IMG/VR virus record: IMGVR_UViG_3300044614_001780
Reading direction: 5' to 3' (one strand)
Length of the DNA stretch: 64,000 bases
DNA from: a virus
Below are positions 10,305-55,620 of this stretch, one piece after another. The notes under the pieces were generated by a model. That model saw nothing but the letters and a program-made list of their open reading frames with translations. It did no database searches and was not told the origin of the DNA. Each line of letters begins with the position of its first letter. Within the stretch, counting starts at the first letter, position 1. Both the position numbers and the translations under genes were made by a program.

Positions 10305-11726
10305 TCAGTTTACATTTTTTAGAATCTGACTTAACCACACTTCACTCATATTTTCAATGATTACATTTGCATCATTGAGAGTTTCAGCAAAGTTGTTCTC
10401 AAGGAGGTATGATGCTACAATCTGATAAACTTCTCCCAACTCCTTCTTTTCTCTTGGGGTTAATGTTCCAGCAGACATGGCAGAACTTCTTGCACTCTGC
10501 AAGTCCTTATCACCACCTTCTACCTTAGCAGCATAACCTCTTAATTGTACTCTTGGTTTATCTCTCACAGAACCCCTTCTAGATGCTGCTAGACCTCTTA
10601 GAGTTCTACTTTGTCTTTCTTCTCTCTTCTTTCTGTCTGCGTCAGACTCATCACGCTTGTGCTTGATATAAGGACGGTCGGCACCTCTTTCTGCTGCTGC
10701 AATGGTCTTGTCTACACTACCAGAACGTTGGTATGCCTTGGAACGTGCTGCAAGTTCTTTACGGACTGAAGTTTCACCTTCCTTGCCGAGTTCCTTACGC
10801 ATTCTGGTTGCTTCATCAAGTCCAAACTCTTCATTATATTCTTTATTTCTGACCGCTGCAATTGCTTCTGCTTTTGACATTCCAGAAGCCATCATTCTTG
10901 CAATTCTTACATCTGCGAAGTCATTATCACCATCTTGGTCTTGGTCTTTTTTCTTTGCTTCATAAATTGAAGAATACGCATTTGCAACATCTTTAAGAGT
11001 TGCTTTTGTTCCCCATTCAAATGATGACATAACTGCTCCTGGTTTTTTAATAGGTGAGGTTGAAGGTGTAGGTTTTGGTGCTGCAACAACAGGTGCTGCT
11101 GGTTTTGGGGCAGGTGCTTCAACTGCAGCAGCAGATCTATTCAAACTTGCCTTTCCAATCTGATTTGCAGTTGCTGATTTTGCGGTCCCACTTAGAATAT
11201 TTTTGGCACTTGAAGATTGAGAAATACTATTAACTGCCGCATTTCCTCTAAGTTGATCCAATTCTGCTTTATTTTGACCTGGCATATCCTTCATTAAAGG
11301 ATTTGGAGTCTTTGGTTTAGCAAAATTATCACCATATTTAAGTTTATTAACTGACATTCCAGTTTCAGCAGCACCTTTCACATCACCTGCTTTTTTCTGT
11401 GCAGAATATACTTGCATACCACCCTTAATTTTATCTGCAGTTGATGCAGAAGCAGATGATGAAGTTCCTGGTTTTGCTGGAGTCACTTTAGTTGGAGTTC
11501 CAGTAGTTGGTTTGGTGTATGTTGCCTTTGCGTCTGGATTTACACCACCCAATGAATTAGTTACAGGGAATCTATCACGAGCACGAACTGGAGTTGATTT
11601 TGCTGGTTTCATTGGACCAGAAGGTTTATCATTTGGACCATCCCAAAGAGGTTCATCTCTCAAAGGAGCTTCAGTAATAATGCTTTCATATAAATTTTTA
11701 ACCGCACCAAAATCTTCCTTATTCAT
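10305..11726 (-). CDS. Modular Lys/Ala/Pro-rich protein, putative internal head polyprotein
   Basis: Basic low-complexity modules separated by acidic (I/L)xE sites; C-terminal linker shared with 12772..15249. Confidence 0.65.
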   Translation of the reverse strand: MNKEDFGAVKNLYESIITEAPLRDEPLWDGPNDKPSGPMKPAKSTPVRARDRFPVTNSLGGVNPDAKATYTKPTTGTPTKVTPAKPGTSSSASASTADKIKGGMQVYSAQKKAGDVKGAAETGMSVNKLKYGDNFAKPKTPNPLMKDMPGQNKAELDQLRGNAAVNSISQSSSAKNILSGTAKSATANQIGKASLNRSAAAVEAPAPKPAAPVVAAPKPTPSTSPIKKPGAVMSSFEWGTKATLKDVANAYSSIYEAKKKDQDQDGDNDFADVRIARMMASGMSKAEAIAAVRNKEYNEEFGLDEATRMRKELGKEGETSVRKELAARSKAYQRSGSVDKTIAAAERGADRPYIKHKRDESDADRKKREERQSRTLRGLAASRRGSVRDKPRVQLRGYAAKVEGGDKDLQSARSSAMSAGTLTPREKKELGEVYQIVASYLLENNFAETLNDANVIIENMSEVWLSQILKNVN

Positions 11727-11773
11727 CTTATTGAGAGTAGTAAAAAGTACTTTTCTTAATATTATTTATTCTT

Positions 11774-12172
11774 TTATTTATTCTCAGAATCAACCCAATC
11801 CCCCTTTATACCCATTGCGCCACCTAAAAGGTCTTGTGCTTTACTTCCATCTTTTTCCTCTTCATAGTAGATAGAAGTTTTTTCTTCTGGTTGTTCTATT
11901 TTTTTATATTCTTCTATTGCTTTATCAACTTCACTCTCAACTCTTTGGTTTAATAATTCTGGTGTATTAATTACATAGTCATTTATTGTATCATCGATTA
12001 AACCACGTTTCAAAAGTTCTTTTTGTATTTCATCAACAAGTTTCCATAATTTATTTTTGTCTATTTTAAATTTAGAAGACAAAATCTCGATAATGCCTTC
12101 TAGCACTATCGAGATTTTTGCCCATTCTATAATTCCTTTTTTCTTTTTTCCAACTTGGAAATTAAAGTTCAT
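11774..12172 (-). CDS. Hypothetical protein
   Basis: ORF track; ATGA coupling. Confidence 0.65.
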   Translation of the reverse strand: MNFNFQVGKKKKGIIEWAKISIVLEGIIEILSSKFKIDKNKLWKLVDEIQKELLKRGLIDDTINDYVINTPELLNQRVESEVDKAIEEYKKIEQPEEKTSIYYEEEKDGSKAQDLLGGAMGIKGDWVDSENK

Positions 12173-12768
12173 TTTTTGGGGGGTGCAGAAACTTTTGCAT
12201 ACACCATTCTCTTACCCCATTTTTCTGGAGTAGTTCCTTTTCCTGCAATGTCTTTGGTAATTTGGGGAGACACATCAAAAGAAACATCTTTATTTACATT
12301 TCCAGTTCTTCCAAAATCACCAACATCATTAATTTTTGCTGTTGTAGATTTTGTCTTTGTTCCCTGTGGATTTGCAGTTAACTGCAATTTGGAACCATAA
12401 GAAATAGATGGTTTTCCTTCTTGTCCTTTTGGTGCCTGTCCTTCCTTATACTTAAAAGGAACTGCAGCATTTCTAGTTGTCCAGTTATGGGGGTCACCAG
12501 TTGCTGTAGTCTTGTTTGGAGTGAATTTATCTCCAGGAGCATACACTGATGCCTTTACTGGTTTCCAACCATATCTTTGTTGTTCTGCACCAGTATGTGC
12601 TCTTTGAGTGAATTTACCAGTAGATTTATCAAGTTCACCAGACTTATAATTTTTATATGCCAAAACCTTTGTATTTGGTTTTGGTTTTGCTGTTGGTTTA
12701 GATGCAAAAGGACCAAAGAACTCACTCAATGAATATGCTTCCGCACAAAATTCTTTATAAGTTTTCAT
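12169..12768 (-). CDS. Capsid-targeting-signal protein with RlpA-like double-psi beta-barrel domain
   Basis: N-terminus MKTYKEFCAEA; C-terminal ASVY..TATGD..AAVP..YGSKLQL..KINDVG..FDVS. Confidence 0.6.
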   Translation of the reverse strand: MKTYKEFCAEAYSLSEFFGPFASKPTAKPKPNTKVLAYKNYKSGELDKSTGKFTQRAHTGAEQQRYGWKPVKASVYAPGDKFTPNKTTATGDPHNWTTRNAAVPFKYKEGQAPKGQEGKPSISYGSKLQLTANPQGTKTKSTTAKINDVGDFGRTGNVNKDVSFDVSPQITKDIAGKGTTPEKWGKRMVYAKVSAPPKK

Positions 12769-12771
12769 AAT

Positions 12772-15249
12772 TTATTTTGCTGGTTTTTGAAGTGATTGGA
12801 AACTTCTATTTCCTTTTGCATCATATTTAACTGTGCCTTTGACACCACCCAGAGTTGCACCATAAGACTGTCCAACTTTTGCCTTTCCTTTTGCTACTTG
12901 GTTTACTCCAGAATTTCCAAGATTTGCACGAACCATTCTTTGTCCTTTATCCCCATAAGTAGCAGTTCCCTTAACTCCACCAACCTTTACATCATATGCT
13001 TTATTAGTAGCAACTTTTTGCTGCTTTCCTGCGATATTTGTTGCAGAAATTACTTTACTTGGTTTTACGTCAGAAGGACCTGACTTTCCTGTTCCTTCTT
13101 GTGATGGAATGTTTCCTACTTTTGGTTTTGCTCTTGTTGCTGCCATTCCTGCTGCTTGAATCTGTTGTCTGGTCTTTCCAGATTTTGCAGCGGCATCACC
13201 ACCTCCAGCACGGAAAGCAGCATCACCACCTCTTGCCGAGTCAGATGACATTCCTGTAGGTTTTGGTTTATTTTGCTTCCCTAGTAATGCTGCTCTATTT
13301 TGTGCCTTTCCAGCATCGGTTTTCCCTCTTTGAACTGCCCTACTAAATTTTCCAGTAAGTCCACCAGTTTTCATAGTATTGATTGCTGATTTATTGATAT
13401 TACTAATTGCACTTCCAACTGCTCCAGCTGCTTTTCCTACTGCTGCTCTATTTTGTGCTTTTCCAGCATCAGTAGAACTCCTAGAAACTGCTCTATTAAA
13501 AGAACCTAATACTCCACCACCATCAGAAAAGGACTTAATATTTTCATCAATTTGTAAATCGTCATTTTCCACAATAAATTGTTTCCAGTATTCATAAGCA
13601 GTCATCTCTTCGGTCTTGGTTGCTTGATAAGAACGAACTCTAGATTCACCTTTTTTGTCGGGTGCTACCATATGGGTTTTGATTTTCTTTGATGTTGGTG
13701 CTTCCTTCTTTTCTTTCTCAAATGCCTTATGAACTTTGGCAGCATCATCATACATATGGATTTTCTTAGCACCACTTTGCTTTGCTACTGCATTTGCAAC
13801 ATCAACTTTCTTCTTACCAATATCACCACCTTTCATTCCACCAGTGTAGTGAATGTTCTTCTTATCTACGTCAACACCATGCTTCTTGAGGTGTCCTTGG
13901 AATTCACTTGGTTTATCAAACTTAGAACGAGCAGTAATGAGATGAACGTTTTGTCCTCTTGCTTGCTTTCTCTTGATATCCTTAATTACTTTTTTGTTTG
14001 GACTAGCAGTTTGGGAGAACTTTTTAGCACTTTGGAACTCACTAAAGTCATAAGAATGTCCCTTATCTAACTTATGAGTATTGAACTCCTGGTTGCTTAA
14101 ACTCTTGACTCTCTTGCCAGATGCATCCTTAACGTGAACCTGAACGTTTGGTTTACCTTTCTTACCGTGTCCGAAGAGAGTTTCGTCAACATCATATGCA
14201 TGAACTGTTGTCTTTTTTCTAGTTCCTCTTGCCTTCTCTTCAATATACTCCTCAAGAATAACTGAGGTAAACTCATCACTAATGTGCTCAAACATTACTT
14301 CTGCTGCTTCATAACTCTCTGCGTAATCTGCAGCAACTAGCATTTCAATAACATAATCATATGCATCATCATAGTCAAAAGACTGATTCAATTGCTTCAT
14401 TTGATTAGCATATCTATTTCCACCAATAGGAGAAGTATTTCTTGCTTTATCAATTGCAGAATCTGCTTTTTTCTTAAGTGCTTCCATACCTTTACTTGCA
14501 GCCATAATGCCACCAGCAGCTAAAGCACCTTTAACTAGAAGTCCAGCAACCTCATCAATTTGCTCACCTTCTGGTTCAAATGAATTTGCCATTGCTTGCT
14601 TACGGATAGTGGCAAAATAAATCTGAGTTCCTTTCTCTTTACCGTATTGGTCAATCATACTCTTCTTCATTGATGAAGTGTCATACTTCTTTTTAAGTTT
14701 TTTCTCTTTCTTCATCTCTCCAGAAGTCATTTCTCTTTCCAAGATATACTCTTCCTTATAACCTTTTGCTGCAGAACTCCAATAATCATCCCAAGACTTT
14801 TGATTTGCTTCAGCATCTTCTCTAGAAGATGGTTTGAAAGTTCCACTTGTTTTACGAATAGAACCTTGAGGTTTTCTTGTTTTCTTTTTAGTTCTTGCCT
14901 TTGCTGCCAAGGATTCAATTTCTTCTTTTGATGCTGGTTTATCTTGGACTTTTTTTGTCACTGGATTCCAGTGTGCTTCATCTACCATATCTCCATCTAG
15001 TTCATATCCAGCAACTTGCATTCCTGGTTTTGCTTTTGCGAGAGGAAGTTGAGGTCCAGTTCTCTTCAAAAATTCTTTCTTTTCGTAAGGATTATCAGTT
15101 CCAGTTCCTTTATTGTATAGTTTTTGTGTCTTCTGGGCACCTTTATGTCCAGGACCAATCTCAAAACTTTGCTCAGAAAGTAAAGTCCCTGCAGTTTCAG
15201 AGGTTTTAATTTGAGTGTACAAGTTTTTAATATCGTTAATACTGGACAT
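12772..15249 (-). CDS. 825-aa modular protein with internal HAD phosphatase domain, putative internal head polyprotein
   Basis: YDVDETL, LITARS, K, MYDD HAD motifs; internal repeats TDAGKAQNRAA x2 and GGVKGT..Y..KG.R x2; late promoter upstream. Confidence 0.65.
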   Translation of the reverse strand: MSSINDIKNLYTQIKTSETAGTLLSEQSFEIGPGHKGAQKTQKLYNKGTGTDNPYEKKEFLKRTGPQLPLAKAKPGMQVAGYELDGDMVDEAHWNPVTKKVQDKPASKEEIESLAAKARTKKKTRKPQGSIRKTSGTFKPSSREDAEANQKSWDDYWSSAAKGYKEEYILEREMTSGEMKKEKKLKKKYDTSSMKKSMIDQYGKEKGTQIYFATIRKQAMANSFEPEGEQIDEVAGLLVKGALAAGGIMAASKGMEALKKKADSAIDKARNTSPIGGNRYANQMKQLNQSFDYDDAYDYVIEMLVAADYAESYEAAEVMFEHISDEFTSVILEEYIEEKARGTRKKTTVHAYDVDETLFGHGKKGKPNVQVHVKDASGKRVKSLSNQEFNTHKLDKGHSYDFSEFQSAKKFSQTASPNKKVIKDIKRKQARGQNVHLITARSKFDKPSEFQGHLKKHGVDVDKKNIHYTGGMKGGDIGKKKVDVANAVAKQSGAKKIHMYDDAAKVHKAFEKEKKEAPTSKKIKTHMVAPDKKGESRVRSYQATKTEEMTAYEYWKQFIVENDDLQIDENIKSFSDGGGVLGSFNRAVSRSSTDAGKAQNRAAVGKAAGAVGSAISNINKSAINTMKTGGLTGKFSRAVQRGKTDAGKAQNRAALLGKQNKPKPTGMSSDSARGGDAAFRAGGGDAAAKSGKTRQQIQAAGMAATRAKPKVGNIPSQEGTGKSGPSDVKPSKVISATNIAGKQQKVATNKAYDVKVGGVKGTATYGDKGQRMVRANLGNSGVNQVAKGKAKVGQSYGATLGGVKGTVKYDAKGNRSFQSLQKPAK

Positions 15250-15271
15250 TTTTATACTCTAGTTTTTTAGT

Positions 15272-15279
15272 TATTTATA
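15272..15279 (-). promoter_or_regulatory. T4-type late promoter TATAAATA
   Basis: Exact gp55 consensus; other exact copies at 21357-21364, 23388-23395, 31829-31836, 44816-44823, 47577-47584, 49275-49282. Confidence 0.8.
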
Positions 15280-15303: not shown

Positions 15304-15309
15304 AATAAA

Positions 15310-21768: not shown

Positions 21769-23358
21769 TTACCATTTAACTTTGTTTGCCCAATAAGCAG
21801 CAGACATTTTTCCCTTTTTAATATTTTTTGCATGTCTTGTTTGAAATCTATGACGACGACTTGCATATTTCTTAGATTCTCCCTTTTTCTTGGGAGAACC
21901 CTTTACACCAAGTTGACCAAAACGAATTAATCTTTCTTTACCACCTTCACATGCCTTTACGACATGGGATTTTCCAGTTTCACCAGAACCATGTGCCTCA
22001 GCTCTAGGCTTATTGCACTTCATTTCAGACTTTTTTGACTCCTCTATTTCAACCCCCTCTCCAATTATACCATTGATTAGTTGTGAATTTTTTCTTCTTT
22101 TTGCATTTTCAAGTGCCTTTAATACCATTAGCATTAAAATTTTTTTTTTATCTAATTCTTCAGAAAGTTTTTCATCACTCTGCATATACTCAGAGGCAGT
22201 ATCAATATAATCTGCAGCTCTGGTAATTTTCGATTGAACCCAGGCAGGCATTTGTGTATCTGCCTTCTTTATTTTTTTACGAAGTGCCTTAATTGCTCTC
22301 TCCATTTGATCCAATTCAACATTTGCCATATAACCTTCATCATCTTTCTTTTTACCACTAGCAATTTCATTATGGTCTTCCATAATTCGTGGATTCATCT
22401 CAATTTTATTTTTTCCTTTCATCACATCGATAATTTTTTTCTTGGAAATCTTTTCTTTATTTCCACCTTTTTCCTCAATTTCAAATAAAAACTCTTCTTT
22501 CCAATTTGAATACTCTTCCATTCTTGCTTGAATTAAATTAGTTTTCAACTTTTTATTTTGCCTTGCTTTTTGACCGAGAGTTGGTTCTGTTCTCGAACCT
22601 TCTGCAGGACCAGCAGTTCTTCTTTCTCCCTCAGATGAAGGTTTCAGCATTTTCCTCTTATCCACCCCATAAGGAAGTTGTGGTCTATCTGGAGATGGTT
22701 GTCCAATTCTCTTTGCTGGTTGACCAACTCTAAATCCACCTTCAGAAGAAGCAGGAAGTCTCCTTCTTTTACTTATTAGTTTTCCTGGGGGAAGAGCCTT
22801 TCTTTCCGAAGAATCAACATTTTTTGGACCAGTTTCTCTAGACTCTTCTCTTTTTGGTCTTCCTGGTTTTCCTAAATCTTTTTTCTCATTTTGTTTTTTC
22901 AGGGAGTCTTTTGCTTCTTTTTTCTTTTGGAGTGCCTTTGCCCCATGGTAAGCACCCTTTGCCAATCCAGCAGCAAGAGATCCTAGATTTTCAATTGCCT
23001 TGGAATGTGCGGTAAGTTCTGGGTCTTTATATCCAATTTTTTGCACCTTTACACTTGCTAAAGCCTTTTTTGCCTTAGCACCTTCAGTTTCTGCTGCTTC
23101 TTTCCCTTTTTCTAACTGCCTCTTTTTTTGATCTTCGTATTTTTGTTTTTTAAATTCAAGTTGTTGTTGAAGATACTTGGTATAATTAGATGACTCCTCC
23201 TTGCCCTTACCCTTTGCTTTCTTATTTTTCTTTTGCTCAGACTCCAAGGCTTCTCTTCCTTTTTTGTTTATTTCGGAAGAAGTTAACTTTTTTCCATCCT
23301 TTTTGGATGTTCTTTCATATTTTTTATCTTCAAAGATATACTTTTCCCAGTAGGTCAT
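21769..23358 (-). CDS. Modular Lys-rich protein, putative internal head polyprotein
   Basis: MTYWEKYIFE start, YSNWKEEF linker, PAWVQSKITRAADY module, C-terminal RFG...RH...SAAYWANKVKW module; late promoter upstream. Confidence 0.65.
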   Translation of the reverse strand: MTYWEKYIFEDKKYERTSKKDGKKLTSSEINKKGREALESEQKKNKKAKGKGKEESSNYTKYLQQQLEFKKQKYEDQKKRQLEKGKEAAETEGAKAKKALASVKVQKIGYKDPELTAHSKAIENLGSLAAGLAKGAYHGAKALQKKKEAKDSLKKQNEKKDLGKPGRPKREESRETGPKNVDSSERKALPPGKLISKRRRLPASSEGGFRVGQPAKRIGQPSPDRPQLPYGVDKRKMLKPSSEGERRTAGPAEGSRTEPTLGQKARQNKKLKTNLIQARMEEYSNWKEEFLFEIEEKGGNKEKISKKKIIDVMKGKNKIEMNPRIMEDHNEIASGKKKDDEGYMANVELDQMERAIKALRKKIKKADTQMPAWVQSKITRAADYIDTASEYMQSDEKLSEELDKKKILMLMVLKALENAKRRKNSQLINGIIGEGVEIEESKKSEMKCNKPRAEAHGSGETGKSHVVKACEGGKERLIRFGQLGVKGSPKKKGESKKYASRRHRFQTRHAKNIKKGKMSAAYWANKVKW

Positions 23359-23386: not shown

Positions 23387-24541
23387 TTATTTATAGTTTT
23401 TGCGGGAAATATGAGATTTCTTTTTTTTACTTGCAGAGAAATCTCGAACCTTTTCTCCTGGGGTAATCCCCTGAACATAATTTAAATACTCAAGAGTACC
23501 TATCTCATGAACTTCTCTAACATCTCTTAACCAACTCTTAAACATGAGATTGTCTTCTGTTACACAAATCAAATAATTTGCACCTCTTCTAATAATTTTA
23601 CCAATCAATCCACTATTTACATTTTCAACAAAAGTACCAACTTCAAAAAGATTATTGTTTTTATAATTCCATCTCAACCCATCATAGTCAAACTCTGGTT
23701 CTATTCTCCAAGCCTCAGTTGACTCATTAACTTTCATGGATTTTCTAAGAGTATTAAACATCTCTTCTTTTTCTCTCTGATCCATATTAATTGGGAGACC
23801 TGCCTCAAATTTGTAAAAATCTCCCATAGCAACTGCAGCTTTCATAAGAGCAGAAGAACCAGGGGATTCTACCTCGCTATCTGGGTCCTTTACTCCTGCA
23901 GTGATTACTTCCAAATTAGAAAATTCATATCCCTGTCCTTCTGCTTTATGAGCCAAACTTTGAAATTCTCCAAGTCTTTCTTGCCCAACAACTAAAGTAA
24001 CATCAGTATACCCATCAGAATATACAGATTCAAGAATATCAAATATTGTTCTAGCATCTTCACTATCAACAATGTATTCCTCGTAATCAGGAAACATTGA
24101 TTTCATATAAGCAATCTTTAAAGTGGGGTTTAGTGGATTTGAAGAAGAATCTTGTATTCTACTTGGGTATATTCTATATTCAAATCCTTTTCGTTTTGCC
24201 TGAGAAAATCCTGCTTTTAGCAATTGCTCATGATTTTTTGATGGGGGATTAAATCTTCCAAGAACAACAACAACTCCTTTTGGTTCTTGTTCCTGTGTTT
24301 GTTGCTGTGTTTGATTCTGGTAGTTGGCACTAACTTTTTCTTCTTCACCAGGAATACCATCTACAGATTTCGAATCACCTTGCCCATAAAACTTTAGTTT
24401 ACCATTAACAGTTTTTGCAACAAAATTTCCTTGATTGTCATACCAATCTCCATGACCATTACCTACAAGTCCACGGTTCTTTGCCTCAGTAGATGCTAAG
24501 GTCTCTACTGCCTCGTTAAAAAATTTAGCAAAAGTCTTCAT
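23387..24541 (-). CDS. Cytidyltransferase/nucleotidyltransferase-like protein with capsid-targeting-like N-terminus
   Basis: MKTFAKFFNEA; GRFNPPSKNH (degenerate HxGH), NPL...K, VVGQER. Confidence 0.7.
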   Translation of the reverse strand: MKTFAKFFNEAVETLASTEAKNRGLVGNGHGDWYDNQGNFVAKTVNGKLKFYGQGDSKSVDGIPGEEEKVSANYQNQTQQQTQEQEPKGVVVVLGRFNPPSKNHEQLLKAGFSQAKRKGFEYRIYPSRIQDSSSNPLNPTLKIAYMKSMFPDYEEYIVDSEDARTIFDILESVYSDGYTDVTLVVGQERLGEFQSLAHKAEGQGYEFSNLEVITAGVKDPDSEVESPGSSALMKAAVAMGDFYKFEAGLPINMDQREKEEMFNTLRKSMKVNESTEAWRIEPEFDYDGLRWNYKNNNLFEVGTFVENVNSGLIGKIIRRGANYLICVTEDNLMFKSWLRDVREVHEIGTLEYLNYVQGITPGEKVRDFSASKKKKSHISRKNYK

Positions 24542-42131: not shown

Positions 42132-43514
42132 TCACATTAGGTTGTCAACACGTACTCTTCTGTAGTAACGGTTGCTGTTTGCTTCAAGACGGCCAAGACC
42201 AGCACTAGTGCCTTCCGCAAATGGGTTAGCAACAATGCCATAACGAGTCTTGAATCCGATTTTTGGCTGGAAGCTGTTCTCACCAACTGCACGTACCATC
42301 TGGAGAGGTACATATGGGCAGTAGAAGAGACCTGCATCATAAGGTGAAGAACCCTTATAACCAACAACGTAGTACTGGTTAGCACTGTTGTTTGCTGCAT
42401 ATGGGTCGATGTAAACCTTGTAACGACCATTGAGAACACCTGCGAAGGTGTTACCAGTGTCATCAACGTTGAGGTTTGCATTGAGTGCAGGGGTGTAGTC
42501 AAGAAGTCCTGCGTGGGTGAGTGCTGAAGCAACATCTGCAGAGCAGAGAATCATGTTGCCCTTTCCTCTACGAGTTCTTTGTGCAATCTGGTTTGCATCA
42601 CGCTCGATTTGGAAGATAAGACCCTTGAACTTCTCAACTGACCAACGACCGTTGGAGTCAACGTCGAGGTCGAATACACCTGAAGTTGCGGTATTGAGGG
42701 TTGCACCCTGCTCAGCAATCTTGTAGATGGTTCTGATAACTTCACGGTTGATCTCAGCAAGAATCTCGGTTGAGAGAATATTTGCTAATTCAGCCTCAGC
42801 ATTTAGACCATGGATTGCCTTGAGGTCTTGTGCAAGCTCTAGTGAGTATTCAGCCTTGAGTGCTCTGGACTTTGCAGTAACGGTGACTTTCTCGATTGAG
42901 AATGCCATCTCGTTGAATGCAGCAGATCCGCTACCATCAAGTGCTTCTGACTCAGCAGTGCTCATACCCTGACCTACATTGTAGGTTCCACCACCTGGGG
43001 TGAGAAGACCTGGGTTTGAACCTGACTGTGCGGTAGTACCAAAACCAGCAGCAACACCAGTTGCACCAGCGGTATTTCCATAACCAGCATTCTGACCAGA
43101 GAATGCGGTATCTGCTTCGTTGAATAGTGCTTCTGTTCCGTTCTGGTTTGTATACTTCGAACGCATTGCGAAGATAAGACCAGTTGGAGCATTCATTGGT
43201 TGAACGCCTGCGAGGTCATATGCGACCAAGTTAGGCATTGAACGACGAATGAGTGAGATTAGAACTGGGTCAAAACCTGCAACAGGTGCAGATGCTGAAC
43301 CACTAAAACCTGCAGCACCAGTTCCTGATGGGTTAGTGTTTACAGTTGGGGTCTCATAGAGAAAGTCACGCTCTTCACGGAGTGCTCTCTCTTGGTTTTC
43401 TAGCAGGATAGCAGTAACTGCTCTACGGTGGGAATCTTTAATTTCACCTAGACCATTATAGTCTAGGAGTGGTGCCCACTTCTCCTGCAATTGTTCTGCG
43501 TTGAACATTTGCAT
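42132..43514 (-). CDS. gp23: Major capsid protein
   Basis: KWAPLL, LIRRSMP, GVQPM..PTGLIFAMR, SRALKAEYS.ELAQDLKAIHG, FKTRYG. Confidence 0.98.
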   Translation of the reverse strand: MQMFNAEQLQEKWAPLLDYNGLGEIKDSHRRAVTAILLENQERALREERDFLYETPTVNTNPSGTGAAGFSGSASAPVAGFDPVLISLIRRSMPNLVAYDLAGVQPMNAPTGLIFAMRSKYTNQNGTEALFNEADTAFSGQNAGYGNTAGATGVAAGFGTTAQSGSNPGLLTPGGGTYNVGQGMSTAESEALDGSGSAAFNEMAFSIEKVTVTAKSRALKAEYSLELAQDLKAIHGLNAEAELANILSTEILAEINREVIRTIYKIAEQGATLNTATSGVFDLDVDSNGRWSVEKFKGLIFQIERDANQIAQRTRRGKGNMILCSADVASALTHAGLLDYTPALNANLNVDDTGNTFAGVLNGRYKVYIDPYAANNSANQYYVVGYKGSSPYDAGLFYCPYVPLQMVRAVGENSFQPKIGFKTRYGIVANPFAEGTSAGLGRLEANSNRYYRRVRVDNLM

Positions 43515-43567: not shown

Positions 43568-44776
43568 TCACTTTTTGGAAACTCTCTCAAGTGCTTGAAG
43601 ATATACACCCATTGTTCCAGTTATTGGTTGGGTGTAATCAGTCTCTTCAGCCATGTAATCTTGGGTGTCTCTCTGAGTAACTACATTCGATGGGAAATAT
43701 GATTCCCTCAAAGTTACTAGTTTCTCACGATAGTCTTCTTCACTACCAAACTCAACATTTTCTGCAAGAGAAGCAAGCTTGTCTTTCTGCGAAAGTGCAA
43801 GTCCTTCAGAAACTTCCGCAAAAATTACGTCAGTTACTGATTCTGCTAGTCTCTTATTTAGAGCAACATTTCTTTCGATCTGCTCGTTGAGTTTTGACTC
43901 CATTTCATCAAGTTTTTCTACCATGCTCTCAAGCACATCATATTTATCTTCAGGGATTGATACATAATGTTCTTCAAAAAGTCCTTTCAGACCCATGAGG
44001 AATGACTCAGTTGCCTGAGATTGAATTCCTCTTTCAACTGCGAGTGCATTCTCTTGAATCCACTCATCAGCAACATACTCTAAATATGCATCGAGTCTTT
44101 CGGTCAATGCTTCTTCAATTGCTGCAACTTCTTCTGTTAGTTGCTCTTCATAATGAGTAAGAATTGCCTCTTCAATTTGCTGTGTTCTAGCATTTAAAGC
44201 AGCTTCAAAGATTGTTTTTGCTTTATCTCTAAACTCTTCGGAAAGATCTTCACCAGATAGAAGGGCAGTTACATCTTCTTCAATTTCATTTTCAATAGCA
44301 ATAAATGCTTCTTTCATTTTTTTCTTTTTATCATCTTCCTCATCTTCTTCGTCTTCTTCTTCACCCTCTTCGTCTTCGTCTTCTTCTTCTTCGTCCTCTT
44401 TTTCCTCTTTAGCAGCCTCTTCTAGTTCTTCTTCACCCTCTTCGAGTTCATACTCGTCCTCTACGAGTTCTTCATCTTCATCTTCAGATGCTTCTTTCAT
44501 TGCTTTCATAGCATCTGCTGCCTTAGCACCCTTGTTTACAACATCCTTAACTTGAGCAAGGGTTGCTCCAGGAGTTTTTAATTTAGCAGAGTCATCGGTT
44601 GACTTATAGTTTTCTGGAGTAGGACCACCAAGGTCTTCCCAACTACCAGTCTGACCAGCAACTGCTCCTGGTGCAAGTTTATGCATTGGTTCTGCTGCTG
44701 CAGCATTAGCATTTACAGCAGTCTTAGATTGTTTAGTGCCTGTTTCCATTTCTTGTAAGTTTCTACCACGGGACAT
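43568..44776 (-). CDS. gp22: Prohead core scaffold protein
   Basis: Acidic coiled coil, KAKTIFEAA, YLEYVADEW; between gp21 and gp23. Confidence 0.92.
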   Translation of the reverse strand: MSRGRNLQEMETGTKQSKTAVNANAAAAEPMHKLAPGAVAGQTGSWEDLGGPTPENYKSTDDSAKLKTPGATLAQVKDVVNKGAKAADAMKAMKEASEDEDEELVEDEYELEEGEEELEEAAKEEKEDEEEEDEDEEGEEEDEEDEEDDKKKKMKEAFIAIENEIEEDVTALLSGEDLSEEFRDKAKTIFEAALNARTQQIEEAILTHYEEQLTEEVAAIEEALTERLDAYLEYVADEWIQENALAVERGIQSQATESFLMGLKGLFEEHYVSIPEDKYDVLESMVEKLDEMESKLNEQIERNVALNKRLAESVTDVIFAEVSEGLALSQKDKLASLAENVEFGSEEDYREKLVTLRESYFPSNVVTQRDTQDYMAEETDYTQPITGTMGVYLQALERVSKK

Positions 44777-44825: not shown

Positions 44826-45476
44826 TTAAAGATTTGATAAAAAGTCTTGGAACAGATTTAACTTCTGCTCATCAAGTTCTTTTTGGTCAACTAATGTATT
44901 TATTCTCTTATAAGTCTTCTGTGCTAGTTGCTCTCTGAGGATTCCTCCATCCCACACCCACTCCTTTCCTTCCATAATTCCAGAAACAAATGCATCGGGT
45001 GCAGATGGATCAGCAACAATATCAGCAGCAGTTGCAAGCATAAAGTCTTCACCAACAACTGAATAACCTTCATTAGTTGGCATCAATGAACCAACACCAC
45101 GAGAAGAAACACCAAGCATTACTCCTTCACCTAAAAGTGAAGAGGCAATTTTACCCATTGGAGTTTCAAGAATTTTTGCTTTTCCAATAAAATTGCTTCC
45201 ATCTCTATAAAGTTCACAAATTTTATGGGAAACTCTATCAAGGTTTACGGTAGGACCATCAGGATGTCCGAGTTCACCAAGAGCACGACCCTTCTGAATG
45301 AAGTTTTCGTTGTATCTCTTAACTTCTCTCTCAAGAGTTCTCATTTCATAGAGTCTCTTGTTTCTGTTTGGTTTATCTGCTTGCAGGAAAATACCTTCAA
45401 TAAAAAGGGATTTTTTACCGTTCTTTTCTTCGGTAATAACTTTTACCTTTTCGATTTCTTCTGTGATTAGTTTCAT
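44826..45476 (-). CDS. gp21: Prohead protease
   Basis: MKLITE, IEGIFLQ, GELGHP, GVSSRG.GSL, DIVADPSAP. Confidence 0.96.
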   Translation of the reverse strand: MKLITEEIEKVKVITEEKNGKKSLFIEGIFLQADKPNRNKRLYEMRTLEREVKRYNENFIQKGRALGELGHPDGPTVNLDRVSHKICELYRDGSNFIGKAKILETPMGKIASSLLGEGVMLGVSSRGVGSLMPTNEGYSVVGEDFMLATAADIVADPSAPDAFVSGIMEGKEWVWDGGILREQLAQKTYKRINTLVDQKELDEQKLNLFQDFLSNL

Positions 45477-45481: not shown

Positions 45482-45751
45482 TTAGTTGGTAAATCCTACT
45501 TTTGCTACTTTTACTGTATTTGCTGATGCAAAAATCACATCGGTTGGGAGTTTTTGTAAGAATTCAACTGTACCAGTTGGCATAGTAAATGATAATGTTG
45601 TTGCTGCACCAACGGAAGTTGAAATACTTACAGTTGCTGCTGCTCCAGAACCGTTATATAACCTCACACAAGTTGCCTCACTAATGCTAGATGCTGTGCC
45701 AGCAGTCGTTGGCATTGCAATCTCAGTAGTAATTATTTTTGTTCGTTGCAT
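45482..45751 (-). CDS. Small hypothetical (possibly structural) protein
   Basis: ATCVRLYN...VEFLQK...KVGFTN; ATAAATA upstream. Confidence 0.65.
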   Translation of the reverse strand: MQRTKIITTEIAMPTTAGTASSISEATCVRLYNGSGAAATVSISTSVGAATTLSFTMPTGTVEFLQKLPTDVIFASANTVKVAKVGFTN

Positions 45752-45785: not shown

Positions 45786-47060
45786 TTATCTTTGTTCAAT
45801 CCAATTCAATACTGCAAGTGCTGCTTTGTTAGTATTGGGACTTGCACAAGCAAGAGTATAAGTATCACTAATTGTTCCAATACCAGTTCTGCCCAACTGA
45901 ATTGCTGCTTTAGTATCAATCTCAATCAGTGCTGCACCACCACCAACAACAAATCCATTTAATAGAGGAGTTCCTCCAGTTACTGCAGTTTGGGTAATAT
46001 TGTATTGTATGAAAGAATTAGGATCTGGGTGATCCACCCAAGTTCCTCCAGTAAGTGTTGCGTTTTCAATGAGTTTCCAATAAACATTAGTATTATCATT
46101 CGTTGCTGCCTGCAATGATCTCAAAAGCATCACACCAGTTAAATTAGTACTCTTCAAACGAATACTTACAATTGGATAGAATGTATTTGCAGATGCCATC
46201 GTTGTTCCCGTGATGGGATTTGCAATACTCAAAAGAGTTCCAAGTTTTTCTGGTTCTCCTTCCTGAATCAGAGAATTAGAACCTTGATACATGTAATGAG
46301 TTCCTGCAACACCAGTTACATTCTCAATCTCAAGACGAATAGGAAGGAATGGAGTAGAACACCAAACTCTATCTTGAGTATTTGAGTTATAAAAGGTATG
46401 ACTCTTAACAGTTTCTCCTGCCATTAACCAAGAAAAATCTACGGTTCCTGCACCATACCACTCATAACTAATAGAAATCATTTGTTGTTTTGTTGGGTCT
46501 GCAGTTATACCAGTCCAACCATTACCATCAAATTTTTCACCATTCCATTCATCTCTACCAACTCTTATTTCTGTGGTAATTCCAGTTGTAGATGTGCGAA
46601 TTACATAAGAGTATGTTCCCCCATTATCCTCAAAGTATGCACCATTATAATCATCAAACAATCCAAATCTTCTACGAATACCTACCTTTGGTTGTTCTAA
46701 ACGAATTGCGAATGCAAGTGTTGCTGGTCTTCCAGGAATGTATCTCATTACATTCTTGGTCTGTCTGATGATTTTACTTCCTGCAGTAGAACCAACTTGC
46801 ATGATTACATTACTAGCAGAAACATTATGAGTTGCAGTTCCAACTCCAACAATTCTCTCATCCCAAACATCAGTCTCTTTACCATACTGGAAGGTATTAA
46901 AGAAAACTGTTTGGAACGGAGCAACTTTTAATCTGTTGTTATTAGAAAACTGAGGTCTCCAGTCTGTCTGGTTTCCCCAATGGTCTGCAATCTGAAAAAC
47001 TTCAAAAAGACTTCTTTCTTGATTTAGAAAGTCCTGAGTATTCTTATTCCACTGTGCCAT
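45786..47060 (-). CDS. Beta-rich probable virion protein, paralogous to a domain of the large protein at 59421+
   Basis: RQTKNVMRYIPG, YEWYGAG, LPIRLEIEN motifs shared with 59421..64000. Confidence 0.65.
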   Translation of the reverse strand: MAQWNKNTQDFLNQERSLFEVFQIADHWGNQTDWRPQFSNNNRLKVAPFQTVFFNTFQYGKETDVWDERIVGVGTATHNVSASNVIMQVGSTAGSKIIRQTKNVMRYIPGRPATLAFAIRLEQPKVGIRRRFGLFDDYNGAYFEDNGGTYSYVIRTSTTGITTEIRVGRDEWNGEKFDGNGWTGITADPTKQQMISISYEWYGAGTVDFSWLMAGETVKSHTFYNSNTQDRVWCSTPFLPIRLEIENVTGVAGTHYMYQGSNSLIQEGEPEKLGTLLSIANPITGTTMASANTFYPIVSIRLKSTNLTGVMLLRSLQAATNDNTNVYWKLIENATLTGGTWVDHPDPNSFIQYNITQTAVTGGTPLLNGFVVGGGAALIEIDTKAAIQLGRTGIGTISDTYTLACASPNTNKAALAVLNWIEQR

Positions 47061-47062
47061 TA

Positions 47063-47377
47063 CTAATCAGTCCAAGTTAATCTTTCTGGTTGATATCTTT
47101 GTGCTTTTCTTACTTTTAACGAATTCTCAGTTATTGGATAAATGTTATGAACAATTGCTCCAGGATACTCTCCTTGAAGTTGTTCTGCTAATTTATTTTT
47201 ATCTAACATCTTTCCTTCTACTTCCATTCGATATAGTTTTCCTTCCCAAACTACATCCGCAAGAAATGATTCACCAACTGGTTCTGATTGATTTTCAGAA
47301 CCGTTGATGTAAAGATTTCCATTGAAATCACCAGCAATATTAATAGATTCGGAAATAAATTGTCTGTATGATTTCAT
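47063..47377 (-). CDS. Small protein with capsid-targeting-like N-terminus
   Basis: MKSYRQFISES; WEGK...YPGAIV module shared with 54478..55620. Confidence 0.65.
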   Translation of the reverse strand: MKSYRQFISESINIAGDFNGNLYINGSENQSEPVGESFLADVVWEGKLYRMEVEGKMLDKNKLAEQLQGEYPGAIVHNIYPITENSLKVRKAQRYQPERLTWTD

Positions 47378-47386: not shown

Positions 47387-47554
47387 TCACTCCTCTTCCG
47401 TATCTGATTCTAAATCAAACATTCCCGATACAACGGCAGGTCTTACAGTCTCAATTTTTTCAACTGCTTTTTGCATTAAAAGTTCTTTAATTTTATCAGT
47501 AATTTCTGTTGGAGATTGCTCTGATGCAATCATATCGATTAAATTGTCACTCAT
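47387..47554 (-). CDS. Small acidic prohead core protein (gp67-position)
   Basis: Not in track; MSDNLIDMIASEQSPTEITDKIKELLMQKAVEKIETVRP...EEE; follows gp20 and a late promoter. Confidence 0.65.
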   Translation of the reverse strand: MSDNLIDMIASEQSPTEITDKIKELLMQKAVEKIETVRPAVVSGMFDLESDTEEE

Positions 47555-47579
47555 AGGATTAATTATAGACTTAAATTAT

Positions 47580-49250
47580 TTATATTTGTCCTGCTTCTGG
47601 TTCCATCACTGTGTTTCCCATAGCAGAACTTGCTGGTTGTTCAGGTTGAGGTGCCCCCATAGGTTGTTCTTGGGGGGCAGTCATTTCTTGCTGCATTGCA
47701 TTTGGATCTGGCAAGATACCTTTCTTTATTTCAGTTTTAATTTGCTTATCAATGTCAATAATATCTCCATCAGTCTGCTTCAAAATCTTAGTTCTAACAT
47801 ACTGAACCGAGAAGTATCTCCCAAGATAAGGTTCCATTGCTGCAACTACAGCAAGTTTATCATTCATCAACTCACTTTCTTTTAATTCAGCAAAGTGATT
47901 ATCGTAAAGGAAATCATATTGGATGTGATCTGAAAGAGTGTTCCAATCTTCTGGAGTTACTATGTTTTTGAGAATTAACTGAGTTCTTAAAATATCATTG
48001 AATAAGTTTGCAAACCTTTTTCTCAATCTTCCAACAAACTTTGTAAACCTTACCTCGTCCCTTAAAATTTCTGATGAACGACCTAAACTAAATCCACCAC
48101 TAGAATTGGTTCTTGTTTCTGGAACATTTAATGATCTGAATAATTTTTTCTGGAAGTATTCAATATCTGCAAGTTCTCCGAGATTTTGACCACCAGGAAG
48201 AGTGGTGATTTCAGTTCCTCTACCACCTTCACGACGGGGGAGCCAAAAATCTTCAAGCATTGCCATGTATTTTCTATCATCACGAATCTCTCCAGTATCT
48301 GCGTTATAGACAAGTTTATTTCTATAACGATTCATTACATCACGAAGATATTGCTCTGCCTTAATTTTTGGAAGATTGCCAACATCAATGTAAAAAATAC
48401 GACGTTCGGGAGCACGAGACAATCTGTAAATAACCAGAGAGTCCTCAATCATTCTTAATTGATTGAGTGCCTTGATTGCTTTATGTAAGTATGACAATAC
48501 AGTTTGTCTATTTCTATCGACTAATCCAGAGGTAATATAAGTTATTGAATCTTTCGATAGTCTTACCATTCTGGCATCATTTTTATATGCCCCTGATGCA
48601 CCTGGGTTTGAACCAGTTTGCAAAGCAGCATTTGGGTTATAAACGTAAAATTCATCTATCTCTGGATTGGTAAAATCAATACTATTATCTTTGTTTATAA
48701 TATTATTAAGTGTTCCAGTTAATGTCTGCTTGTCATTCTTTAATTTTCGTATTAAACGAATTTTTAATGGGTCAATATATCTTATATCTTTAATTCCTTC
48801 TGATGGTTTGGTTACATCGATTACTTTATGGTAATACAGTCTTCCATCAATATACCAATTCCTAAAAATTTCATGGGCTTTCTTATCGAAATCCATGACT
48901 TCTTTAATATATTTAAATTCTTCTCTAATTGCTTCTTTGAGTTTATCTGATGCAGGAAGATTTGAAAGTTCTATTTCTACGGGAGAATCATTCAAATCCG
49001 AAACAATTGCCTCATCTACAATATCTTCAATGGCACTATCACACTCTGGGTGAAGTGCCATTTCACGATATCTTCTTACTAAATCTTGCTCATTTTTATA
49101 TACACCTTCAATGTCTACATACTGACCATAAAATCCACTGGAAATATAATAATCAGATTTGTCTTCATCATTTTGAGGAACAGGGGAAAGAATCTTATCG
49201 GATTCATCTCTCCCCTTATCCTCAAATTTGTAACCAAATAATTTAGGCAT
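47580..49250 (-). CDS. gp20: Portal vertex protein
   Basis: YREMALHPE, WYIDGR, YRLSRAPERRIFYIDVGNLP, EDFWLPRREGGRGTEI. Confidence 0.98.
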   Translation of the reverse strand: MPKLFGYKFEDKGRDESDKILSPVPQNDEDKSDYYISSGFYGQYVDIEGVYKNEQDLVRRYREMALHPECDSAIEDIVDEAIVSDLNDSPVEIELSNLPASDKLKEAIREEFKYIKEVMDFDKKAHEIFRNWYIDGRLYYHKVIDVTKPSEGIKDIRYIDPLKIRLIRKLKNDKQTLTGTLNNIINKDNSIDFTNPEIDEFYVYNPNAALQTGSNPGASGAYKNDARMVRLSKDSITYITSGLVDRNRQTVLSYLHKAIKALNQLRMIEDSLVIYRLSRAPERRIFYIDVGNLPKIKAEQYLRDVMNRYRNKLVYNADTGEIRDDRKYMAMLEDFWLPRREGGRGTEITTLPGGQNLGELADIEYFQKKLFRSLNVPETRTNSSGGFSLGRSSEILRDEVRFTKFVGRLRKRFANLFNDILRTQLILKNIVTPEDWNTLSDHIQYDFLYDNHFAELKESELMNDKLAVVAAMEPYLGRYFSVQYVRTKILKQTDGDIIDIDKQIKTEIKKGILPDPNAMQQEMTAPQEQPMGAPQPEQPASSAMGNTVMEPEAGQI

Positions 49251-52343: not shown

Positions 52344-52429
52344 TTGTTTCCCCTCTTAAAGAAGTTCATTTAGTCTAAAAGTATTTATTATTTGATAACT
52401 TTATATTGGGGAAACTGCCAGTGAACAAA

Positions 52430-52663
52430 TTACCAGTCTGGGTATTCCCATTTATCTGCTATTTTATGTGAGATTTTTCTATTTTCCTGTATTCTTTTTA
52501 TGGTACATGATTTGCATTCATAAGAATATGCGGATGGGATACTTCCTCTGCCTTTACGAGTCAAGTAAAAACCATCAATTAAATCTTTAGTTTCTTTGCA
52601 GACCCTACAAGTTCTTTCAGTTAAAAACAGATACTCTCGTTCAAACTGCTCTTCTATATCCAT
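52430..52663 (-). CDS. Small zinc-binding protein
   Basis: CRVC...ECKSC; TAATG coupling with gp17. Confidence 0.65.
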   Translation of the reverse strand: MDIEEQFEREYLFLTERTCRVCKETKDLIDGFYLTRKGRGSIPSAYSYECKSCTIKRIQENRKISHKIADKWEYPDW

Positions 52664-54315: not shown

Positions 54316-54491
54316 AAATTATTAAAATTCAAACTTGCTAATGTTTCTTGATATTTTAAGTGAAGTTTTACATAAGATTTTGCGATATTTTTAAGGTCAT
54401 CTACATCATCACACGCATCGATTTCTCTTGCGATTCTTTCATACTCAAAGTTTTTGGTTAAATTCTCAAGAACAATTTTATTTGGGTCCAT
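54312..54491 (-). CDS. 59-aa helix-loop-helix protein, NblA-like candidate
   Basis: Not in track; MDPNKIVLENLTKNFEYERIAREIDACDDVDDLKNIAKSYVKLHLKYQETLASLNFNNL; ATGA overlap with gp17. ORF is well supported, NblA identity is tentative. Confidence 0.5.
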   Translation of the reverse strand: MDPNKIVLENLTKNFEYERIAREIDACDDVDDLKNIAKSYVKLHLKYQETLASLNFNNL

Positions 54492-55620
54492 TTAGGTCTC
54501 CAGTAAATAATAAAGGTTTTGTTGGGTCCTTTGTTGATGGATTGAAAGATAATACAATAGCACCTGGATATATCTTAGATACTTCGAAAGTTACCTGTTC
54601 CTTAGAAGGTCTTGTAAATTGTGGGAAGAACATTTGAACTCCCAGGTTCTTTCCTCTCCAGTTTAGCAGTATACTGTAAGTCGTGCCACGAGACTGTATC
54701 CTCGTATAGTTCTCAGTTACTGAACTTGACTTAAGTGGTTCTGGTTTAATTACATCAAAGAACTCATATTCAGTTGCTTTAAATTCTTCTCTCCAGTTGG
54801 AGTAATCATAAGATTCTTTTCTAGTCTTATTACCCCAGTTCTTGGCACCAACTTTGCGACACTTAACTAAAGCACCAGAGGCATATGCAGAGGGCCAAAC
54901 CTTATAACGAGACTTTACCTTTGAGTAACAAGCATCTTTTTCTTCTGTCATTTTATTTTGAGATGCTTGCTGCATGATGCGAGCATTTTTTGCACTTTTA
55001 AGAGTTACCTGTTTCTTTAAATCAGTTGCCAAGTCCGTTGCAAGTTTTTCGTATGCTGATTGTGATTTTGGCATATCCATCATCAATGGGTTGCTGCTTT
55101 CAGTGGCAATCATCTTTGCCTTGCCTTCTCTATCAGGATTTGGGTCCTGACGATTCTTACGTTCAAATGCCTTTTGCTCCTCATCATCGGAGAGGGATGC
55201 CTTCATTTTGCTGGAACCACACTTTGGTTTTGTGGTTTGTCCTGGTTGTTTGGCACAGGGTTTTCCCGCATATTTACCACCCAGTTGAACCCAACCAGGG
55301 GTGCCATCAGAAGAGCGACTCTTAGTAAACCAGTCACGCAAAGAATCATCACCACTTTTTGTTTCTTCATTAACTTTCTCTGCTTTTTTCAATCTTGTAT
55401 AATAATCTGGAAGTTCTTCCAAATGCTGAAGGGCAATCATCCTTGCCATTTTTTTGCTTCCAGTATGCTCCCCCTCAACCTTGATTCCCAATTTTAATTC
55501 TGGTTCTAAAGTATCAAGAGAGATTTTATGCTTCTTCGCAATCTCCTCTGGGGACATATACTTTTTGATAGGTCCCTTTGGGTCAGTTGCTTCTAGAAGA
55601 AATTGTGAAAAAGTTTTCAT
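54478..55620 (-). CDS. Modular protein with capsid-targeting-like N-terminus, putative internal head polyprotein
   Basis: MKTFSQFLLEA; modules GIKVEGEHT..HLEELPDYYTRL, SLRDWF..GWVQ..KPC, DACYSKVK..WPSAYASG, separated by xxE sites. Confidence 0.65.
   Translation of the reverse strand: MKTFSQFLLEATDPKGPIKKYMSPEEIAKKHKISLDTLEPELKLGIKVEGEHTGSKKMARMIALQHLEELPDYYTRLKKAEKVNEETKSGDDSLRDWFTKSRSSDGTPGWVQLGGKYAGKPCAKQPGQTTKPKCGSSKMKASLSDDEEQKAFERKNRQDPNPDREGKAKMIATESSNPLMMDMPKSQSAYEKLATDLATDLKKQVTLKSAKNARIMQQASQNKMTEEKDACYSKVKSRYKVWPSAYASGALVKCRKVGAKNWGNKTRKESYDYSNWREEFKATEYEFFDVIKPEPLKSSSVTENYTRIQSRGTTYSILLNWRGKNLGVQMFFPQFTRPSKEQVTFEVSKIYPGAIVLSFNPSTKDPTKPLLFTGDLNGPK

Follow-up and report, generated by a model that had tools for sequence, protein, structure and literature searches.

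The stretch of viral DNA considered here (IMG/VR record IMGVR_UViG_3300044614_001780; the 64,000 nt analyzed are referred to below as the window) raises the question of why four scattered genes should begin with near-copies of one decapeptide, and how they relate to a set of long basic proteins encoded among them. The source is a T4-like cyanomyovirus with all of its genes in the window on the minus strand, to which all features below belong; they include those for gp13 to gp23, UvsW/X/Y, gp41, gp43, NrdA/B, and host-like zwf and gnd. The nearest sequenced relative, S-SCSM1, has only ~78% nucleotide identity. Eight genes are designated A to H here, in order of position. The products of A and of C to H are probably capsid-targeted internal cargo, a cyanophage counterpart of the T4 internal proteins (IPs), and the reading of the tagged proteins as head cargo is well supported.

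The four starts had been noticed in an initial annotation of the window, and all were recovered where it had placed them on the minus strand: MKTYKEFCAE in C (12768), MKTFAKFFNE in F (24541), MKSYRQFISE in G (47377), and MKTFSQFLLE in H (55620). The pattern MK[ST][FY]xxFxxE has exactly four matches in the six frames of the window, which are these, each at the first Met of a long open reading frame (ORF) on the coding strand; there were none in 50 shuffles, and none is expected by chance. In each case Met-Lys is followed by an aromatic residue at position 4, Phe at 7, a hydrophobic residue at 8, Glu at 10, and then a small residue. The codons differ among the four copies, which points to constraint on the peptide. 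These counts apply to the 64-kb window and not to the whole genome; related genomes have between one and four strict tags each.

An equivalent DNA pattern run on the T4 genome (NC_000866) finds only ipII, ipIII, and gene 61.1, with no match for a reversed-pattern control. The first two both begin MKTYQEFIAE and are annotated as internal virion proteins, while 61.1 is a small gene. Over residues 1–11, C is identical to T4 IPII and IPIII at nine of eleven positions. No similarity of IPII or IPIII to the window proteins was found past residue 11, and the mature parts have no homology to IPI, IPII, or IPIII; such homology is not required, since the T-even internal proteins have only the tag in common (PMC3012670). 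In T4 experiments, targeting was found to reside in tag residues 4 and 7 and processing in residues 8 and 10 (PMC9026906). In the cyanophage tags these positions stay invariant or hydrophobic, and the tag is kept while the remainder of each protein diverges. Identification of the decapeptide as a T4-type capsid targeting sequence is supported by this pattern of residues.

The head machinery with which such a tag would interact is complete in the same genome, with all four Pfam assignments far above the cut-off: gp20 portal protein (47580..49250; Portal_T4, PF07230, E 2e-184), gp21 prohead protease (44826..45476; Peptidase_S77, PF03420, E 1.6e-37; 46% identity to T4 gp21), gp22 scaffolding core protein (43568..44776; T4_CASP, PF25623, E 2.1e-76), and gp23 major capsid protein (42132..43514; Gp23, PF07068, E 1.2e-151). 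T4-type head proteases all cut after Glu (PMC5694885). Compared with composition-matched shuffles, [LIVM]xE is enriched in both gp22 (z 2.8) and gp21 (z 2.6). The motif DFLYE/T at residue 54 of gp23 (a slash here and below marks the position just after the Glu of a candidate site) lies in the alignment 11 residues upstream of T4 SFLTE/A and is of the same type. The T4 cleavage position, which we take to be at FLTE/A, itself falls in a gap of the gp23 alignment; DFLYE/T is the likely maturation site.

Of the tagged genes, F (23387..24541) encodes a 384-aa NMNAT-like nucleotidyltransferase, the T4-GC190 'cytitidyltransferase' (phrog_395, E 8.5e-80), with the tag MKTFAKFFNE/A. Its homologs in viral contigs (41–82% identity) start MK.F..F..E at 35 of 35 loci, and M1, K2, F4, F7, and E10 are invariant in an alignment of 20 homologs (42–83% identity). 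F is 38–45% identical to annotated copies of the phrog_395 family, some members of which (P-HM1/2, Syn1, S-CAM7, and jumbo coliphages) consist of the core domain only or match from about residue 90, and so are without the tagged N-terminal part. The AlphaFold model (pLDDT 71.5 overall, 80–92 over the core) has a Rossmann-like nucleotidyltransferase fold, with NMN/NaMN adenylyltransferases as top Foldseek matches (2qjo, 9rpm, 8aih, and 3h05; E 2e-6 to 3e-5, probability 1.0, over ~190–290 residues). Read together with the alignment, the model begins with the tag as a short low-confidence helix; next come a small conserved domain and a linker rich in Gln and Pro, and behind these the enzyme core and, at the C-terminus, a beta domain. 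The motif GRFNPP...H is invariant (G95, F97, N98, P99, P100, H104), whereas at the nucleotide-binding motifs (H/T)xGH and SxxxxR the window copy reads S-K-N-H in place of the T-(T/V)-G-H of relatives and SSALMK in place of their SASK(L/Q)R. On the model, F is NMNAT-like in fold, with nucleotide-binding motifs partly altered in its own clade and a putative enzyme activity. Sequence searches with F and D against PDB chains found no match.

Gene G (47063..47377; phrog_1742, E 7.9e-41) encodes 104 aa, just the tag MKSYRQFISE/S and one module, and alignments to its homologs, found in 135 cyanophage records, begin at residue 1. By hhalign, this module is a homolog of the one at the C-terminus of H (96.3%, E 1.5e-9). 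Gene H (54478..55620) encodes a 380-aa basic cassette protein of the T4-GC119 family, with the tag MKTFSQFLLE/A followed by DUF5661, VNE/, a Cys module, MTE/, a DACY module, a YSNWREEF motif, VTE/, and the G-like module. At least 7,998 homologs of H are found in metagenomes; about 108 of the best 120 start MK.F..F..E. DUF5661 in H is the only Pfam hit at E<=0.01 for these proteins, with nothing for A, C, D, E, F, or G and only a sub-threshold UPF0181 on A.

Two further genes separate G from gp21. J (89 aa, 45482–45751) begins MQRTKIITTE, which resembles the ITE motifs in the leader of A and at the start of gp21, and the J-like ORFs 38 and 39 of S-SCSM1 are virion proteins by mass spectrometry (MS). 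I (424 aa, 45786–47060) belongs to T4-GC15 (phrog_1645, 'virion structural protein'). In other cyanophages, the trio H-G-I lies between terS and terL, which suggests that the block has moved as a unit.

Gene C (12169..12768) encodes a 199-aa basic protein with the tag MKTYKEFCAE/A and a second L-S-E site at residues 17–19. Its homologs in viral contigs begin MKTF(K/L)(Q/E)F..E and are located between D-like and A-like genes; in DSL-LC03 and S-PRM1 a homolog directly follows the major capsid gene. In the DSL-LC03 homolog (L010, 5001–5564), position 10 of the tag is Asp and not Glu (MKSFNQFCKD); in T4 this substitution blocks processing and not targeting. A second site, NIQE/L, is kept a few residues on, and the start as annotated is probably too early by 39 codons, within the capsid gene. 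By eye, residues ~85–190 of C have the pattern of an RlpA-like double-psi beta-barrel (TATGD...AAVP...GSKLQLT...INDVGDFG...DVS), and a protein-atlas lead to the same fold scored 0.88, below its reliable range. A profile search of PDB with C found nothing meaningful, and no function is assigned to it. If the RlpA-like resemblance is real, C would be a head-packaged cell-wall-binding or cell-wall-cutting protein. Between the basic proteins C and A, and overlapping the end of C by 4 nt, lies gene B (11774–12172; phrog_3316), whose 132-aa product is acidic (pI 5.0) and has no leader. It could be a partner or chaperone of its basic neighbors.

The initial annotation had treated four long proteins (the products of A, D, E, and H) as capsid-targeted as well. 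This holds in the canonical form for H only, A, D, and E having leaders of other kinds. Gene E (21769..23358), directly downstream of F, encodes a 529-aa basic protein with the leader MTYWEKYIFE/D, previously listed as related to the decapeptide; it is indeed a Trp variant of it, and the protein has an internal motif EEYSNWKEEFLFE/I. E-like starts (MTYWEKYIFE, MRTWKEIIKE, MRPWNEIIAE, MANWREELLFE) have the hydrophobic spacing of the tag and its terminal Glu, and the gene after F starts M..W[KNRE]E..(I/L).E in 13 distinct viral contigs. Close to E and F, at 20803–21321, a gene with a late promoter motif is homologous to S-SM1 gene 195 (T4-GC425 'S-layer domain'), whose product is a virion protein by MS; the three make up a second cluster of virion genes, in the replication-gene region and apart from the structural module.

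Genes A and D have a longer type of leader. The 473-aa product of A (10305..11726) is basic; it starts with the leader MNKEDFGAVKNLYESIITE/A, has conserved sites SIYE/A and GLDE/A in its interior, and carries at its C-terminal end a helical module that also occurs in D. Leaders of the type M[NK]K.[DN][LF]...LY..[VI]..E recur among the A-like genes of over 20 viral contigs. D (12772..15249; phrog_415, E 4.3e-4) encodes an 825-aa basic cassette protein with the leader MSSINDIKNLYTQIKTSE/T. The A-like and D-like leaders are 18–19 residues long and are kept across dozens of contigs with a conserved D-C-A cluster. In D, the leader is followed by cassettes ending in MVDE/, YILE/, QIDE/, and YIEE/, a HAD-like domain (~346–516), an internal tag-like motif, a Gly/Lys-rich part, and a beta module (~750–822). 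The DxDxT motif of the HAD-like domain is intact, and the Thr/Ser, Lys, and Asp-Asp motifs are present: D353, V354, D355, T439, K480/K481, and D501 are invariant among 11 sequences, and T357 and D502 at least 90% conserved. Foldseek matches to this region come mostly from phosphatases and nucleotidases of the HAD type, among them AphA, class C acid phosphatases, MDP-1, and the T4 Pnkp phosphatase, the best with a weak E of 0.045 on a model with pLDDT 55–77. The AlphaFold model of D as a whole is poor (pLDDT 47), and outside the HAD-like region it was used for order and disorder and not for fold claims.

Homologs of several of these proteins are known from purified virions. In S-SM1, T4-GC190 was detected with 25 peptide counts and GC119 with 13 (PMC3037559, Table S8), and Sullivan et al. 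named T4-GC190 as a cyanophage-core gene and an experimentally determined virion protein (PMC3037559). The S-SM1 copy of F starts MKKFSAFLNE. In S-SCSM1, ORF91, NMNAT (virion protein) by annotation and MS, starts MKSFLQFLKE. Similar NMNAT-like or cytidylyltransferase proteins have been reported from the virion proteomes of S-CBWM1, S-SZBM1, and S-CREM2 (PMC10665884), which brings the total to five phages from several laboratories. For H, the link to the GC119 family is through the S-B43 copy, annotated as T4-GC0119 structural protein, and the genes in the position of E in S-SM1 (gene 191, GC1454) and S-SCSM1 (ORF92) encode MS virion proteins. The S-SCSM1 and S-CREM2 papers leave unexplained whether the NMNAT-like protein is carried or co-purified and mention no targeting sequence. 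The virion evidence is from homologs only, and it concerns presence in the particle as a whole.

The putative expression signals resemble those of late genes. The initial annotation had pointed to late-promoter-like motifs upstream of most of these genes, and they are borne out: ATAAATA occurs 21 times on the coding strand of the window and once on the other, and is found 19–49 nt upstream of A, D, E, and F, while H has CTAAATA. The motif TATAAATA is at 23388–23394 for E and at 15272–15278 for D. C follows D by 3 nt, and so shares its late promoter; G is preceded by a 55-codon ORF with its own TATAAATA. Motifs of the T4-late type, (T/A/C)TAAATA, are thus placed 19–49 nt ahead of A, D (with C), E, F, and H and of the small ORF that precedes G, and late expression is predicted for all of these.

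The long proteins had also been described as strings of basic modules separated by xxE sites. A, D, E, and H are basic (pI 9.5–9.9), and their module borders do fall at hydrophobic-x-Glu: for eight module types, 93 of 104 unique nine-residue contexts immediately upstream contain [LIVMF]xE, compared with 10.9% of background windows from the same proteins. Within these motifs P2 is free and the Glu at P1 is retained, while P3 is hydrophobic with few exceptions (VNE, VSE, IKE, LKE, IQE, IVE, LDE, among others). Conservation at hydrophobic-x-Glu sites exceeds that at the remaining Glu residues in A (0.86 vs. 0.67), D (0.97 vs. 0.70), E (0.74 vs. 0.39), and H (1.00 vs. 0.70), with the five sites of H 98–100% conserved; several of the sites listed earlier are weakly conserved, for example IITE (0.41). 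In sets of homologs of H, D, and E, cassettes are gained or lost exactly after the motif. D-like proteins, for example, have ...G(D/E)(M/I/L)V(D/S)E/ and then one of three alternative cassettes depending on the contig, each starting right after the motif. As had been proposed, the modules are shuffled: in the H homologs of S-RIM8, DSL-LC02, and S-B43, the same small modules occur in another order, and one of them sits in E in the window. The segment shared by A (396–470) and D (253–333), part of which had also been noticed before, is matched by blastp with E 4e-4. Four candidate sites in D (D171, D233, D338, D561) are in stretches with pLDDT <50 in the AlphaFold model, while some other [LIVM]xE motifs are inside folded domains (D302–321, D356, D404). 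Pieces predicted from the candidate sites would be 4–32 kDa and mostly basic (pI 9–10.6), with three acidic exceptions.

Some of the borders also carry what look like further copies of the tag. The initial annotation had reported YSNW(K/R)EEF as a linker shared by E (residues 283–290, 22489–22512) and H (residues 273–280, 54781–54804). The motif is present in both as described; it is, however, itself tag-like, and it is N-terminal in other phages. In E it extends to YSNWKEEFLFE (22480..22512, residues 283–293), and a motif of the form (Y/F)(S/F)(N/C/D)W(R/K)(E/D)E(F/L)..E is kept in 16 of 25 E-like proteins; in L031 it forms the N-terminus of the E-like protein, MANWREELLFE. The motif in H, YSNWREEFKATE (54769..54804, residues 273–284), begins YSNWREEF and is at the same junction in 61 of 120 H homologs. 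D has EEMTAYEYWKQFIVE (13567..13611, residues 547–561), followed by NDD; E547, E548, M549, Y552, Y554, W555, K556, Q557, and F558 are invariant in D-like proteins. In five relatives the D-like ORF ends right after ...YWKQF(I/V)(D/K), and in the one such locus checked (L080) an ORF ending ...YWKQFID is followed by a tagged C-like gene, MKTFKQFCAE. Judged by their sequences, both the YSNW(K/R)EEF 'linkers' and EEMTAYEYWKQFIVE are internal tag-like motifs. The C-terminal module of D occurs alone elsewhere behind a tag of its own (MKTYSTFITE, MKTFEQFYSQ), and gp177 of Caulobacter phage Cr30 is a tag-like start plus DUF5661 alone. Together with G, these suggest that a tagged protein with one module and a chain of several modules are variants of a single design.

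A mechanism modeled on T4 can be proposed from these observations. The amphipathic N-terminal tag, with an aromatic residue at position 4, an aromatic or aliphatic one at 7, a hydrophobic one at 8, and Glu at 10, would presumably bind the gp22 scaffolding core, and the protein would be enclosed as the gp23 shell forms. The gp21 serine protease would then cut after the tag Glu and free the mature protein, a step that is quite likely. C, F, G, and H would use the canonical T4 tag, E the Trp variant, and A and D the longer LY..I..E leader. A, D, E, and H would be chains of exchangeable cassettes, each ending in hydrophobic-x-Glu and some with an internal copy of the tag; as the scheme has it, gp21 would most likely cut them into the mostly basic pieces of 4–32 kDa, which would stay with the DNA. 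Taken by itself, such cleavage at internal junctions is plausible, with the prospects for and against it about evenly balanced. Delivery into the host, with early functions there, is a possibility that falls somewhat short of that. The initial annotation had proposed polyproteins of small effectors packed in the head and released by gp21; the tag, the head machinery, the virion homologs of F and H, and the shuffling of cassettes agree with it, while internal cleavage, ejection, and an effector role are at the stage of predictions.

Several points weigh against it. The H homologs of S-RIM8, DSL-LC02, S-B43, and S-SM1 are without a canonical tag, yet GC119 is in S-SM1 virions, so that the tag is not the sole route into the particle. 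The G homolog of S-SCSM1 (ORF30) is not among the proteins detected by MS, and proteome authors note that abundant late proteins might co-purify with particles. In the literature covered, which did not extend to the Syn9 and S-PM2 proteomes, no neo-N-terminus for any cyanophage protein and no paper on the tag or its cutting was found. The number of [LIVM]xE sites was rejected as evidence because it does not exceed that of composition-matched shuffles in A, D, E, or H (z 1.4, 1.7, -0.5, and -0.1); it is their position and conservation that stand out. The junction contexts themselves share ancestry and are not phylogenetically independent, and the border motif could serve recombination or folding instead of cleavage.

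The last point leads to an explanation in which A, D, E, and H lose their leaders and otherwise stay whole as large multidomain internal proteins, as T4 Alt does, with the hydrophobic-x-Glu borders acting as exchange joints or helix ends. The lack of enrichment in motif number is in its favor, and gain and loss of cassettes exactly at the motif would also be expected from recombination at conserved joints. The L080 arrangement, with ...YWKQFID directly before MKTFKQFCAE, puts tag-coding DNA at gene borders where it would be open to fusion, and many of the motifs are in helices predicted by AlphaFold. The freedom of P2 while P1 and P3 are kept argues instead for selection on a peptide motif and not on DNA identity. 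The motif is also identical to the specificity of the family to which the encoded protease belongs, whose cuts are always made after Glu (PMC5694885), and gp22, a known multi-site substrate in T4, has it in excess. On balance, uncut multidomain proteins seem rather unlikely here.

Alternatively, all of these proteins might be disposable components that shape or size the prohead core, as gp22, gp67, and gp68 do in T4, and are then degraded by gp21 and mostly expelled ahead of DNA packaging, with no delivery to a host and no effector role. The long ones are largely predicted to be disordered or helical; gp67 and gp68 are missing from cyanomyoviruses according to a review (PMC2984593), so that analogs would be expected; and in SPN3US, extra propeptide sites are thought to help clear fragments from the capsid. 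However, GC119, GC190, GC1454, GC1455, and S-SCSM1 ORF91 and ORF92 have all been detected in purified mature virions, at peptide counts similar to those of gp6, gp20, and gp22. F, and likewise D in its HAD-like domain, has the look of an enzyme, for which a scaffold would have no need. A purely scaffolding role is very unlikely in view of this.

That the starts reflect chance, start-site preferences, or some other targeting signal (membrane or secretion), with the virion detections due to contamination, is scarcely credible even though MK starts are common and proteome authors themselves raise contamination, given four tags where none is expected, differing codons among them, residues 4, 7, and 10 invariant over homologs of 41–82% identity, a pattern that picks out known internal protein genes in T4, and NMNAT-like or cytidylyltransferase proteins in five virion proteomes from several laboratories.

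The reading of these products as processed internal cargo can also be set beside known systems. The closest parallel is the capsid targeting sequence of T4 IPI, IPII, and IPIII (Mullaney and Black, 1996; PMC9026906; PMC3012670), which has the same decapeptide pattern, a small residue (Ala or Ser) after the Glu, and the same gp20-gp21-gp22-gp23 machinery. The T4 IPs are products of late genes, as is predicted for the cyanophage proteins, and in both the mature parts are mutually unrelated and mostly basic. The two differ in that the cyanophage cargo would also comprise an NMNAT-like enzyme as well as long proteins of several cassettes in which tag-like motifs recur internally, in that the tagged genes are scattered over replication and packaging modules, and in that cleavage and ejection are predicted for the cyanophage. 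T4 Alt, a packaged ADP-ribosyltransferase processed by gp21 at both ends (PMC9026906), is also a large head-carried enzyme trimmed by the head protease, and its C-terminal propeptide would parallel the motif at the end of the short D-like proteins (...YWKQFID). The folds here are those of a nucleotidyltransferase and a HAD-like domain, in contrast, and no ADP-ribosyltransferase was seen in the window.

In the giant phages phiKZ, 201phi2-1, and SPN3US, a gp21-like protease also cuts many of the inner-body and ejection proteins after Glu, in some cases more than once, and the propeptides have a part in incorporation (PMC5694885, which cites Thomas et al., 2010, 2012). In these phages, however, the cut is at (S/A/G)-x-Glu, with a small and not a hydrophobic P3, the propeptides often exceed 100 residues, and neither chains of tiny shuffled cassettes nor a universal ten-residue tag is described in that work. 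T4 gp22, gp67, and gp68, which are cut into internal peptides, are multi-site gp21 substrates inside the prohead, and cyanophage gp22 is also rich in [LIVM]xE; the cyanophage cassette proteins differ from them in being basic, modular, and variable between phages, with homologs that persist in mature virions. Among the cyanomyovirus NMNAT-like virion proteins themselves (T4-GC190; S-SCSM1 ORF91; S-CBWM1, S-SZBM1, S-CREM2), F is a further member, and the copies of S-SM1 and S-SCSM1 likewise carry the tag; the difference is that the papers leave virion association unexplained and mention no targeting sequence.

The 55-codon ORF between gp20 and G (47387–47554, with its TATAAATA at 47577–47583) is helical in its N-terminal part and has an acidic tail (...FDLESDTEEE), and small counterparts follow gp20 in S-SCSM1, S-PRM1, and DSL-LC03. 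It recalls T4 gp67 in position and composition, and a comparison with T4 gp67 and gp68 found no sequence similarity. Elsewhere in the window, gnd (344 aa) and zwf (442 aa) adjoin at 4676–7048 and are pentose-phosphate genes typical of cyanomyovirus auxiliary metabolism.

What the cargo would do in a host can be approached only by analogy, namely with IPI* and Alt, and through the enzyme-like domains of F and of D, where DxDxT is intact. A combinatorial cargo system could be imagined in which one tag serves as loading address, protease site, and DNA-level cassette joint, and in which a reshuffled injected set, including the NMNAT-like enzyme and a HAD-type phosphatase, acts before phage expression, for example by holding NAD levels against NAD-depleting defenses; as a whole this is speculative and unlikely to be correct in full. 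If the tag works as in T4, the packaged cargo of the most abundant ocean myoviruses could be listed from sequence alone. If the reading given here is true, it would explain the presence of an NMNAT-like enzyme and of many unknown proteins in purified cyanophage particles, a puzzle of several papers, and it would mean that coliphages and cyanophages, despite the deep split between their lineages, have both retained the T4 signal for loading and processing. The cassette proteins, whose metagenome relatives number in the thousands, would then represent internal proteins in the form of polyproteins and a large pool of proteins that may be the first to meet the host.

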